This document shows, piece by piece, positions 2 through 3,620 of a DNA stretch of 47,670 nucleotides (positions within the stretch are counted from its first letter, which is position 1; each line of letters starts with the position of its first letter). A program made the position numbers and the translations under genes. The notes below the pieces were generated by a model. It was not told the DNA's origin. It was given only the letters and a program-made list of their open reading frames with translations, and did no database searches. This DNA comes from an uncultured Planctomycetia bacterium (GTDB lineage: Bacteria > Planctomycetota > MHYJ01 > CAYXQY01). The stretch lies in assembly GCA_964594615.1 (NCBI GenBank), contig CAZQNZ010000003.1, positions 1 to 47,670 on the forward strand, given 5' to 3'.

Positions 2-49
2 ATGATGTTTCGCAGCGTCTGGACTCTTTTTGCAGCGGAACTGCCATGA
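2..49 (+). CDS. Possible 3' end of an upstream gene (partial, ...FRSVWTLFAAELP*), translationally coupled to senA
   Basis: Frame 2 is open from the window edge to TGA 47-49, overlapping the senA ATG as ATGA; too short to identify. Confidence 0.3.
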   Translation: MMFRSVWTLFAAELP

Positions 50-1374
50 CCGATCTCACGGACTGGCTATCGAAGGATATGCTGTGTGAGTGGGTGAAGG
101 ATGCGCGCAACCGCTCCATCGAACTGGTGGATGATCTGACGGATCAGCAGCTTCGCCAACCTCCATACATGTCGAAGATCAATCCACCACTGTGGGAGAT
201 TGCGCACCTGACGTGGTTTCAGGAAAATTTCGTATTGCGGGATCTGCTGGGGCGCGAGCCGGTGTTTGATGACGTGGACCGCCGTTACAACTCCAGTGTG
301 ATCGGTCATGAAAAGCGGTGGTCGACGGACCTGTTCCCTCGCGAGAAAGCGTACGAATACATGAGGACCGTACGTGACCGTATCGTCGATTTCGTACAGC
401 ACGGGCGGCCGGATGAGGAAGCACTTCACCGGATCCTGTATACGGTGTACCACGATGACATGCACAACGAGGCGTTCACGTACACCCGTCAGACGCTCGG
501 GTATCCCCCGCCTGACCTGGAAGGTGTTGGGAACGGCACCATCGTGGAGGGGGAGGAATCGATCGAGTCGGATGACGTGGACGTGCCGGGGGGCATCTTT
601 CCGCTTGGTGCAAGCCGCAGCGAGCCGTTCGTCTTCGATCTGGAAAAGTGGGTGCACCAGGTGGAGGTCGAACCGTTTTCGATGGCACGTACACCGGTGA
701 CCCAGGGACAGTTCGCGGAGTTTGTGGAGGATGGCGGGTATCGTATGCCGTCCGTCTGGAGCGACGCCGGATGGCGCTGGCGGCAGGCGAACAACGCGGA
801 TCATCCCCTGTACTGGCGGCGTGACGGCAACGGCGGTTGGTTGCGGCGGGATTTCGACGCATGGACCGAACTTGAATCGAACCGACCGGTCGTCCATGTA
901 AATTACTACGAGGCAAAGGCGTACTGCCGCTGGGCGGATCGCCGATTACCGACGGAAGCGGAATGGATGGTGGCTGCCTCCGCCGAGCAGATGGAGGACG
1001 GCGACCGGCTGACGGGGGACAAGCTCCGTTACCCGTGGGGAGATGAACGCCGGGAAGATCCGCCGGCACAACTGGACTGGCGGACGATGACATGTGCCGG
1101 CGTCAACGCATTTCCGGATGGGGACAGCCCGGCCGGGTGCCGGCAGATGGTCGGGAACGTATGGGAGTGGACGGATTCCGATTTCGAACCGTTCCCGGGA
1201 TTTGAGCCGGACTTTTACGAGGACAACGCCGAGCCGTGGTTCGGCACCCGCAACGTGCTGAAGGGCGGGGCGTGGCCCACGCGAAGTCGGTTCATCCGCT
1301 CGGAGTACCGCAACTATTTTACCCCTGAACGCCGAGACGTCTACGCCGGATTCCGAACCTGTGCTCCCCAATAG
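46..1374 (+). CDS. senA: Selenoneine synthase SenA (EgtB-like non-heme iron enzyme; DinB-like + FGE-sulfatase domains)
   Basis: NPPLWEIAHLTWFQE and HDDMHNEAF (3-His iron site), C-terminal FGE motifs RLPTEAEW, GNVWEW, GFRTC; adjacent to a SenB-type glycosyltransferase. Confidence 0.85.
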   Translation: MTDLTDWLSKDMLCEWVKDARNRSIELVDDLTDQQLRQPPYMSKINPPLWEIAHLTWFQENFVLRDLLGREPVFDDVDRRYNSSVIGHEKRWSTDLFPREKAYEYMRTVRDRIVDFVQHGRPDEEALHRILYTVYHDDMHNEAFTYTRQTLGYPPPDLEGVGNGTIVEGEESIESDDVDVPGGIFPLGASRSEPFVFDLEKWVHQVEVEPFSMARTPVTQGQFAEFVEDGGYRMPSVWSDAGWRWRQANNADHPLYWRRDGNGGWLRRDFDAWTELESNRPVVHVNYYEAKAYCRWADRRLPTEAEWMVAASAEQMEDGDRLTGDKLRYPWGDERREDPPAQLDWRTMTCAGVNAFPDGDSPAGCRQMVGNVWEWTDSDFEPFPGFEPDFYEDNAEPWFGTRNVLKGGAWPTRSRFIRSEYRNYFTPERRDVYAGFRTCAPQ

Positions 1375-1409: not shown

Positions 1410-2366
1410 ATGAACGTTCTACTGATCACCCCCGTTCCGCGAACGTCCCGGAAAGGTAACCGGATTACCACCGATCGATGGGAGGCGATGCTCACGGAGA
1501 TCGGTCATAACGTGCGGGTGGAGGAGTCGTACTCGGGTCAGCAGGCGGAGGTCATGCTGGCGCTGCACGCACGACGAAGTGCCGATGCGGTGCGTGCGTT
1601 TGACCGTGATCAACCGGATGCACCGATCGTGCTGGCATTGACGGGCACGGATGTGTATCGGGATATTCACGAGAATGAGACGGCTCGCGACACGCTTTCT
1701 TACGCGGACCGGTTTATCGTGCTGCAGCCCGAGGCCGCGAAGGAGCTTCCGGAGGCAATGCGTGACCGGGTGCAGGTGGTGTATCAATCGATCAACAACG
1801 TTCCCGAGCCGGTGGCCGCCCGGACGGATGCGTTTGAGGTATGAGTGATTGGCCACCTGCGGTCCGTGAAAGACCCGTTTCGTGCAGAGGAGGCCAGCCG
1901 GATGCTGCCGGAGGATTCGAACGTTGAGGTGACGCACGTGGGCGGTGAACTGGAAGACGGCATGGCGGAGGAGGCTCGTCGTCGAATGGAGGATAACCCA
2001 CGATACGAATGGGTCGGCGAACGTCCACGGGACGAGACCCTCCGGATTCTGTCGCGCAGCCGATTGCTGGTGCATTCCTCGTTGATGGAAGGGGGAGCGC
2101 ATGCCATCTCGGAGGCAATCGCCTGTGAAACACCGGTTCTGGCTTCGGAGATCCCCGGCAACGTGGGGTTGCTCGGCCAGGGGTATCCGGGATATTTTCC
2201 CGTCCGTTCATCGGAGGCACTGGCCGACCAGTTGGCCAGAGCGGAGTCGGTTGACACGTTTTACGATCAGTTGCAGCAGGGGGTCACGTCGAAAAAGGAA
2301 ATCGTTCAGCCTGCGCATGAACGACGCCTGTTGCGAGAGCTTTTTGACGACGTTGCATCTCTTTGA
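1410..2366 (+). CDS. senB: Selenosugar synthase SenB (GT-B glycosyltransferase) with one in-frame TGA at 1842-1844 (candidate selenocysteine); 318 codons if read through
   Basis: ORFs 1410-1844 and 1845-2366 are in the same frame, separated only by TGA. Family motifs on both sides: GNRITTDRW, ALHARRS, LTGTDVY, then (FEV*)VIGHLRSVKDPF, SSLMEGGAHAISEA, IPGNVGLLG..YPGYF. Confidence 0.85.
1845..1896 (+). promoter_or_regulatory. Candidate bacterial SECIS element immediately 3' of the in-frame UGA
   Basis: Upper stem GGTC(1861-1864)/GACC(1872-1875); 7-nt loop CGTGAAA with GU at loop positions 2-3, 20 nt after the UGA; lower pairings CTGC/GCAG and TGGCC(1850-1854)/GGCCA(1892-1896). Confidence 0.5.
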
Positions 2367-2879: not shown

Positions 2880-3620
2880 ATGCGGGAGAATAGCGACATC
2901 AAAGCCGTATTTTTCGACGCGGGCGGAACACTGCTTTACATCCATCCGTCCGTCGGCAACGTCTACGCGGACGTGACCCGGGAGATGGGAGTGGAGCTCT
3001 CGAATGAACGGATCGAGTCTCGCCTGCGAGAGATCTGGGAGGAATACGCTCCGACCAACGCCGTTCGAGAAGGAGATTATCGGGCGTCGGATGAACGGGA
3101 TCGAAAAATGTGGAAAGAGTTTCTTCGCCGGCTATACGACGACATCGATCAACTGCAGGACCTCAATTTTGACGACTGGTTCCAGCAGGTGTTCAACCGA
3201 TTCGGGAAACCGAAAACGTTTGAGTTGTACGAGGAGACGCTTGAGACGCTGGCGACCCTGCGAAAAGACGGGTACCACGTGGGTGTCGTATCCAACTGGG
3301 ATTCGCGGCTCATTTCCATCTGTGAAGGACTCGGGGTGGATGAGCACGTGGATTTTATCTTGCCCAGTGCCGTGGCCGGTTATCGCAAACCCAGCTCGAA
3401 GATTTTTGAACAGGCGCTGGAAAAGGCGGAGGTGCAACCGGATGAAGCCATGCATATTGGTGACAAGGAGCTGGATGATTACCGGGGGGCTCGGTCCGTC
3501 GGACTCACGCCGGTACTGCTGGATCGAAACAATCAGCAAAGGGAGCAGAATCAAAACATTATTTCGTCACTCGACGAGGTTACGAATTTTTTGAATACTC
3601 AGAAAATTGATTTCACGTGA
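2880..3620 (+). CDS. HAD-superfamily hydrolase, subfamily IA (REG-2/HDHD3-like)
   Basis: Motif I FFDAGGTL, motif II VSNWD, motif III/IV RKP...HIGDKELDDY. Confidence 0.9.
   Translation: MRENSDIKAVFFDAGGTLLYIHPSVGNVYADVTREMGVELSNERIESRLREIWEEYAPTNAVREGDYRASDERDRKMWKEFLRRLYDDIDQLQDLNFDDWFQQVFNRFGKPKTFELYEETLETLATLRKDGYHVGVVSNWDSRLISICEGLGVDEHVDFILPSAVAGYRKPSSKIFEQALEKAEVQPDEAMHIGDKELDDYRGARSVGLTPVLLDRNNQQREQNQNIISSLDEVTNFLNTQKIDFT

Follow-up and report, generated by a model that had tools for sequence, protein, structure and literature searches.

A probable selenocysteine codon in senB, the selenosugar synthase gene of an uncultured Planctomycetia bacterium

Selenocysteine (Sec) normally replaces a conserved, redox-active cysteine. 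The textbook case is fdhF of Escherichia coli, in which a UGA codon is followed just downstream by a Sec insertion sequence (SECIS) that is read by SelB. A bacterial SECIS is recognized as a hairpin shortly after the UGA, with a G near the start of its apical loop. For fdhF(Sec) of Treponema primitia, the available text of the report describes control by selenium through translation of the UGA/SECIS region (PMC3892789). For SenB, the selenosugar synthase, the available text on the Variovorax paradoxus enzyme assigns N20, H58, T83/T85, R155, K158 and the EGGAH motif to the selenophosphate pocket and the catalytic lysine (PMC10891094). Here we describe a senB gene with an in-frame UGA in a stretch of 47,670 nucleotides from an uncultured Planctomycetia bacterium (GenBank assembly GCA_964594615.1, contig CAZQNZ010000003.1, positions 1 to 47,670 of the forward strand; the whole stretch is hereafter called the window). 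The UGA probably encodes Sec, which would make this senB a selenoprotein gene. An earlier note on the same DNA had proposed this from the letters of the sequence, and its proposal is supported by the recurrence of the TGA in three samples, by the presence of selA, selB and tRNA-Sec, by the occurrence of UGA and Cys at the same column in homologs, and by a hairpin that is specific to the TGA forms in Poribacteria.

Read from the ATG at 1410, senB (1410-2366, plus strand) comprises 318 codons and ends with a TGA at 2364-2366. Its frame is interrupted only once, by the TGA at codon 145 (1842-1844, plus strand), which lies between ..DAFEV and VIGHLRSVKDPF.. and is the proposed Sec codon. We found no second lesion. 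The read-through protein matches the TIGR04348 profile from end to end with 385 bits and thus passes the curated cut-off of 300, while each half alone falls below it. The N-terminal Rossmann domain with the interdomain linker (codons 1-144; 1410-1841, plus strand) covers profile positions 1-139 with 160 bits. The C-terminal Rossmann domain (1845-2363, plus strand), which matches Pfam Glycos_transf_1 and carries the motifs GHLRxVK (R151, K154) and EGGAH, covers positions 142-309 with 206 bits. When coding potential on both sides was scored by codon usage, this TGA ranked first among the 8431 in-frame TGA contexts of the genome. The earlier note's description of one continuous frame after senA, with two intact halves and the TGA as the only lesion, is therefore accurate.

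An error of sequencing or assembly at one base would give the same picture, and the window does come from a metagenome assembly of modest depth. Such an error is highly improbable, because Logan contigs, assembled separately for three samples of a single study (runs X1, X2 and X3), agree on the TGA at 1842-1844 and show no variant, and because the break recurs at this codon in related fragments of other origin. Run X4 has no coverage at these positions. The base that the earlier note had wanted to see checked is thus TGA in the contigs of all three samples. In run X1, a short contig departs from the window after 1883 with eight letters that agree with G402, a congener of the window's organism, at this place, which suggests that the sample also contains a close relative. 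No RNA run was listed among those that contain the stretch.

TGA also serves as an ordinary stop in this organism, as the earlier note had indicated for the window. It is the commonest ordinary stop, ending 15 of the 32 open frames of at least 250 codons in the window and 811 of 1731 in the genome. A global recoding of TGA was rejected on this basis.

The genome assembly (2.84 Mb, 83% complete) encodes most of the machinery for Sec decoding that the earlier note had listed: selB (359 bits), selA (561 bits) and a single copy of tRNA-Sec (82 bits), all above their cut-offs. The remaining gene, selD, was not found in it; selD with one in-frame TGA is present in the congener G402 and in a member of the same family, G404. 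Among the TGA contexts ranked next by coding potential, the window's genome contains a second likely selenoprotein gene, CMD/AhpD-like with a CEYU motif and a hairpin GCCUCC[GGUCU]GGAGGC with a stem of 6-8 base pairs (bp) (locus L073, G000 C193:2187-2708, minus strand), and a third, OsmC-like with the sequence ..AAAGU LTGT.. (locus L074, C34:12603-13292, plus strand).

We then compared column 145 across SenB genes. Among 401 genomes sampled from the phylum, 61 contain SenB, and only the window has TGA at this column. The congener G402 (74% identical) has TGC (Cys) and the family member G404 (61% identical) has TCC (Ser). The earlier note had placed Cys at this site in many homologs, which is partly right. 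Cys is the commonest residue (19 of the 48 distinct sequences without the TGA), but the column also contains Ala, Val, Leu, Gly, Phe, Arg and Ser. A scan with a degenerate DNA pattern, TGA followed by codons for x-[ILVMF]-[GA]-H-L-R-x-V-K-D-P, gave 10 matches in a collection of species genomes (9 Candidatus Poribacteria and 1 uncultured bacterium) and 7 in contigs from metagenomes. Each of the 17 proved to be a SenB gene in which an in-frame TGA stands between intact halves, as far as the locus extends.

Because the pattern itself requires a TGA, we surveyed Poribacteria independently of stop type. SenB is present in 45 of 176 genomes, and 10 of the 45 have a single internal TGA, always at column 145. 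Two genes with a TAG proved to be cases of natural gene ends, and both have TGC at column 145. Of the 35 non-TGA genes 15 were fetched, and these have Cys (12), Ser (TCA; 1) or Ala (2) at the column. Hence UGA occurs at the exact column in other SenB genes and Cys in their relatives, as one would expect from the earlier note's reading. In the Poribacteria genomes tested, selB and tRNA-Sec were present in 5 of 5, and selD with an in-frame TGA in 3 of 3.

The coding sequence downstream of the TGA is constrained in these genes beyond the encoded protein. We examined synonymous sites in 13 distinct Poribacteria-type TGA genes with amino acid identities of 66-99.7%. Only 9 of 156 degenerate columns with an invariant amino acid use one codon throughout, and 4 of these 9 stand next to each other, as codons +6 to +9 counted from the TGA. 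They give an invariant run of 14 nucleotides (nt), CGTCCCGTGAAGGA, the next longest run in the gene being 5 nt; none of the invariant third positions in the run was fixed by the search pattern. The run folds into GUCC[CGUGAA]GGAC, and nt 24 is the first position of the loop. All 14 distinct TGA forms contain the run, versus 2 of 15 non-TGA forms from Poribacteria (Fisher p 1.8e-6), and in the Cys forms its synonymous sites vary freely. The two exceptions, L097 (G607; TCA, Ser at column 145) and L099 (G609; TGC, Cys), nest among the TGA forms in the tree and thus look like recent changes away from Sec.

The window has a hairpin in the same place. The stem-loop that the earlier note had described, GGUC[CGUGAAA]GACC, was found where it had been placed, at 1861-1875 on the plus strand (GGTC 1861-1864, loop 1865-1871, GACC 1872-1875), and is a candidate for the apical part of a SECIS. 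Its loop starts 20 nt after the UGA (nt 24 when counted from its U), with GU at loop positions 2-3, and begins with the same CGUGAA as in Poribacteria plus one A, the stem being shifted by one base. The longer enclosing stem is also there (UGGCC/GGCCA plus CCUGC/GCAG.G; 1850-1896, plus strand), with a minimum free energy (MFE) of -17.1 kcal/mol and a z-score of -0.87; its 3' arm is absent from the congener G402, where the MFE z-score is 0.01. Of the 109,135 TGA triplets in the window's genome, 2.6% are followed by a hairpin that satisfies the same simple definition.

Column 145 is not the only place at which an in-frame TGA occurs in SenB genes. Within the window's phylum, 108 of the 151 genomes of family f15 contain SenB, and 11 of these, from five genera, have a TGA in the interdomain linker at about column 130 (QSAPxU; loci L047, L080-L084 and L087-L091 in genomes G240, G545, G442, G552, G500, G531, G472, G569, G448, G517 and G558). 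The site is shared by every member of one genus (four) and by each of the three SenB-bearing members of another. The hairpins that follow are canonical, with GC-rich stems of 7-8 bp and loops GGA or CGGGC. For instance, 9 of the 11 genes share the 8-pair hairpin CG(N)(A/G)CGCC[GGA]GGCGUUCG with its loop at nt 24, and the remaining two have a different hairpin in the same place, CCGCGG[CGUGUC]CCGCGG. In the linker hairpin, 93% of the cells are paired; the changes are one-sided, from A-U to G-U, and no compensatory change was seen. Non-TGA homologs have no Cys at this site, where the linker is variable and rich in Pro. Of the linker-site genomes tested, 5 of 5 have selB and 4 have selD with a TGA.

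A third position is codon 4 (RIU-IVTP), with a TGA in three genomes of three families: L085 (G455), L049 (G099) and L050 (G204). A GC-rich hairpin follows the TGA in each of these genes, selB is present in all three genomes, and many Poribacteria SenB proteins have Cys at the codon-4 column (MKICLITP). The scattered TGAs of the first phylum survey had been taken as noise; the family survey showed that two of the places are recurrent. Neither the TGA in G463, which lies upstream of the gene, nor the TAG in G462, which is its natural end, is an internal SenB stop. A lone in-frame TGA at SenB column 27 (between RWAR and LRSLGH; L048, G397) was seen in one genome only. Taken as a family, SenB seems secure as a selenoprotein in Poribacteria and in the linker-site forms, judging from these sequence comparisons.

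Protein records contain further fragments that end near the linker site. Among the best 120 matches to the N-terminal half, 11 are 129 residues long and end in ..IYQS(C/F)(T/N) (for example P0139, P0150, P0159 and P0175), some of them on contigs of 7-8 Mb. The matching C-terminal halves (P0031, P0034 and P0067) begin with MGHLR or MMGHLR, and P0159 and P0031 lie on contigs of equal size (31,348). These fragments probably represent another clade with a stop at the linker site.

A gene of this structure could also encode a split enzyme. Translation would stop at the UGA and restart at the GTG at 1845 with the help of a GAGG, and chains of 144 and 173 amino acids would together form a two-chain GT-B enzyme. 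The restart features that the earlier note had pointed out are present in the sequence: the GTG (1845-1847, plus strand; Val146 in the read-through protein) directly follows the TGA, and the GAGG at 1836-1839 (GAGGT at 1836-1840) precedes it by 5 nt, a workable spacing. The break is close to the domain boundary (linker 124-141, strand 142-147), gene callers yield such half proteins in many assemblies, and one related fragment, P0003, opens at residue 146 with a start codon. However, the break lies inside a beta-strand and not in the linker, and TTTGAGGTN simply encodes Phe-Glu-Val, which also occurs in unbroken homologs. Furthermore, 6 of the 12 distinct TGA forms have GTA, GTC or GTT, none of them a start codon, directly after the TGA, yet the amino acids of codons +1 to +5 are kept through synonymous changes, so that translation of these codons must come from upstream, through the UGA. 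The start codon that this explanation requires is likewise missing at the linker site, where an Arg, Ser or Pro codon follows the TGA in 9 of the 11 genes. Lastly, any stop codon would serve a split enzyme, yet the internal stops at the recurrent sites are TGA without exception (10 of 10 in Poribacteria, 11 of 11 in the linker and 3 of 3 at codon 4), in searches that were blind to stop type. Re-initiation, which the earlier note had kept as an alternative, is weakened by these results, and we regard a split enzyme as unlikely.

The phylogeny separates the window from the Poribacteria. The window groups with G402 (Cys) and G404 (Ser) with support of 100/99 and 100/100, apart from the Poribacteria clade, so its TGA at column 145 arose independently of theirs. 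SenB homologs are also found as fragments in protein records. When the C-terminal half was used as the query, many of the matches were proteins of 170-179 residues, encoded on long contigs, whose first residue is exactly residue 146; with the N-terminal half, many matches had a length of exactly 144 residues and FEV or FDV as their last letters. Among the best 120 matches for each half, the start falls exactly on column 146 in 21 C-halves and the end exactly on column 144 in 21 N-halves. The N-half P0123 (144 amino acids) is 85% identical to the window and has FEV as its last residues, and the C-half P0003 (174 amino acids) is 84% identical. P0124, 71% identical and G402-like, likewise ends in FEV. 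In P0004 and P0005 the first residue is Val153, encoded by the following GTG, which would be expected if they share with G402 a GTA at codon 146. Differences between the window and P0123/P0003 affect 6 of 91 conserved columns (one of them a start-codon artefact) versus 43 of 223 variable columns (p 0.0055).

These fragments bear on whether senB is a young pseudogene in this population, inactivated by a recent change from TGC to TGA. The TGA is one base away from the TGC of G402, the depth is low, and the hairpin, being already present in the Cys form, needs no special explanation. A nonsense mutation is nevertheless a decidedly poor candidate. The 318 codons contain no other lesion and the coding potential around the TGA is the highest in the genome; the same break occurs in fragments that are 85% and 71% identical, with intact halves and substitutions that avoid conserved columns; and the same codon has been kept across 10 Poribacteria species.

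In order to place residue 145 in the enzyme, we modeled the read-through protein with AlphaFold2 (mean predicted local distance difference test score 95.7, predicted template modeling score 0.91). Residues 124-141 form a coil, and residues 142-147, which include residue 145, form the first beta-strand of the C-terminal domain. Column 145 aligns to L149 of V. paradoxus SenB (Val in the second entry), 6 residues before R155 of the selenophosphate pocket and 9 before the catalytic K158 in V. paradoxus numbering. In 28 homologs including the window, N17, H53, T78, T80, R151, K154, E227 and G228 are invariant or nearly so, and R151, K154, E227 and G228 are strictly invariant. Column 145 holds a mixture of Cys, Ala, Val, Leu, Gly, Phe and Ser, as would suit a buried position in a strand better than a catalytic one, and neither the linker site nor column 145 corresponds to a conserved catalytic residue.

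Several observations weigh against a Sec codon in the window. Since column 145 is not conserved and characterized SenB proteins have Leu or Val there, there is no chemical reason to expect Sec. The support for the TGA base comes from separately assembled contigs at a depth of about 3-12 and not from raw reads. The phylum sample has selB in 285 of its 401 genomes, so that finding the gene in each of the TGA-bearing genomes tested is only weakly informative. In addition, selD is missing from the 83%-complete assembly. For P0003, P0123 and P0124, we infer the type of stop codon and the linkage of the two halves on one contig from protein records.

Most of the remaining objections concern the hairpin. 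The window's inner hairpin has 4 bp and is weaker than the other SECIS candidates of the family and the genome, which have GC-rich stems of 6-8 bp. Its 15 nt are found without any change in G402, the congener with TGC, so the hairpin is not an adaptation specific to the window and derives from the conserved peptide. No Rfam family of relevance matched positions 1700-2050 at E values up to 10. Folding energy is ordinary, with z-scores of -0.87 for the window and 0.01 to 0.55 for three other SenB stretches. We note that this test has little power, because the AhpD-like SECIS, which is likely genuine, scores only -0.33; with values between -0.87 and +0.55 for the window, the congener, two Poribacteria sites and this likely SECIS, folding energy was dropped as evidence. 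Finally, neither RNAalifold nor pair counts revealed a compensatory base-pair change in the SenB hairpins. As the arms of the hairpins hardly vary, the argument rests on invariance at synonymous sites and not on covariation. The conservation that the earlier note had looked for is thus seen at synonymous sites, where it is specific to TGA forms in Poribacteria, and not as covariation or as a difference between the window and its TGC congener. With a 4-bp hairpin that is the same in this congener, the evidence for the window's own UGA is weaker than that for the Poribacteria.

If the UGA at 1842-1844 encodes Sec, the ribosome would read it with Sec-tRNA(Sec) brought by SelB, which would be recruited by the small hairpin 17-31 nt downstream, within the codons for Arg-Ser-Val-Lys-Asp-Pro. 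We infer that this hairpin is bound by the organism's own SelB. The product would be a full-length selenosugar synthase of 318 residues, in which the C-terminal domain would carry Sec145 in its first beta-strand. Because the characterized enzyme has Leu at this position, Sec145 is presumably not catalytic. The main consequence would then be that synthesis of SenB depends on charged Sec-tRNA, and therefore on the supply of selenophosphate.

A more far-reaching suggestion, which we offer only tentatively and consider doubtful on balance, is that the UGA was selected as a codon and not for the chemistry of Sec. SenB would then reach full length only in cells with ample charged Sec-tRNA(Sec), so that selenophosphate would be spent on selenoneine only after the selenoproteins have been served; the earlier note had proposed a selenium-gated checkpoint of this kind. 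This arrangement would have arisen repeatedly, at up to three positions (codon 4, the linker between the domains and the strand that precedes GHLR), each time with a hairpin co-opted or built in the coding sequence that follows, and close relatives would have switched between this codon and Cys or Ser in both directions. The idea gains plausibility from the two further recurrent TGA sites, at least one of which is at a non-conserved position. The occurrence of up to three unrelated sites, all upstream of the catalytic loop and with the linker and column 145 not conserved, speaks for selection on the UGA itself. Selection on selenol chemistry thus appears less favored than selection on UGA as a means of making the gene dependent on Sec-tRNA. 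A neutral origin of the window's UGA is also possible, because a Cys codon is one base away from TGA and the hairpin may have existed beforehand, as it does in the congener.

The gene upstream of senB is senA (46-1374, plus strand), encoding an EgtB-like selenoneine synthase (NF041186 SenA, 462.9 bits, cut-off 420; Pfam FGE-sulfatase and DinB_2). The cluster consists of senA and senB only, and no senC is adjacent in G402 or in the Poribacteria locus L057. No senC was seen beside senA in the window either, but the contig begins just 45 nt before the senA start. In G402 (L071), a superoxide dismutase gene lies upstream of senA on the opposite strand, with no adjacent senC or selD. Downstream of senB in the window, after a spacer of 0.5 kb, is a gene for a HAD-family hydrolase (2880-3620, plus strand), whose counterpart in the same place in G402 scores above the cut-off for the REG-2-like family IA (TIGR02252).

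A literature search found no paper that calls SenB a selenoprotein, although the supplementary tables of selenoproteome surveys, which were outside the text covered, may list the family. The available text of the SenB literature, including the original preprint, in which the term "UGA" does not occur, makes no mention of an in-frame UGA. In the parts available, two papers on SenB structures mention selenocysteine only as background, and a 2026 review of prokaryotic selenoproteomes contains neither SenB nor glycosyltransferase.

If SenB is a selenoprotein, a glycosyltransferase of selenium natural-product synthesis would join the selenoprotein families, and Sec decoding and selenoneine synthesis, traits that have so far been treated separately, would be linked. 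With up to three independent UGA sites, at least two of them at non-conserved positions, SenB may offer a rare natural test of whether a Sec codon can be regulatory rather than catalytic. There is also a practical consequence. Because gene callers cut these genes into halves named "glycosyltransferase" or "hypothetical", surveys of selenoneine capacity will miss or discount them. In one record of a metagenome-assembled genome from Poribacteria, for example, a senB fragment is named only "glycosyltransferase". The genes that would be missed include those of Poribacteria, which are sponge symbionts.

Among the closest known systems is the SenB of V. paradoxus (8k5u, 8jjn, 8jjq and 8fbx), which belongs to the same family, has the same GT-B fold and has senA as its neighbor, as the window's SenB does. 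Its catalytic set is matched in the window by alignment (N17, H53, T78/T80, R151, K154 and EGGAH). The two differ at the column that is UGA in the window, where the characterized SenB proteins have Leu or Val, and in their gene clusters: the characterized proteins come from three-gene senABC clusters, whereas the window and its relatives have senA-senB without an adjacent senC.

With the classical bacterial selenoprotein genes, the window's senB shares an in-frame UGA, a Sec/Cys pair among homologs, the genes selA, selB and selC, and a G-U loop that starts about 20 nt after the UGA. Its hairpin is much smaller than a textbook SECIS, while the linker-site forms of senB have the textbook hairpin of 7-8 bp, rich in GC and with a GGA loop, as in the classical genes. 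Unlike the classical selenoproteins, SenB is a glycosyltransferase, its UGA occurs at up to three positions, and a catalytic role is recognized for none of them.

A parallel in function is SelD, which in its Sec-containing form is likewise an enzyme of the selenium pathway that itself needs Sec, as we propose for the window's SenB. An in-frame TGA in selD was found in all 9 relatives and other SenB-TGA genomes in which selD was detected. The Sec or Cys of SelD is an active-site residue of the N-terminal glycine-rich loop, whereas no catalytic role is apparent for the Sec of SenB. The fdhF(Sec) gene of T. primitia differs from senB in that its Sec is catalytic, in formate dehydrogenase, and in that the effect described in the available text is on transcription elongation; it is the nearest precedent for a UGA that makes the expression of a gene depend on the supply of selenium (PMC3892789).

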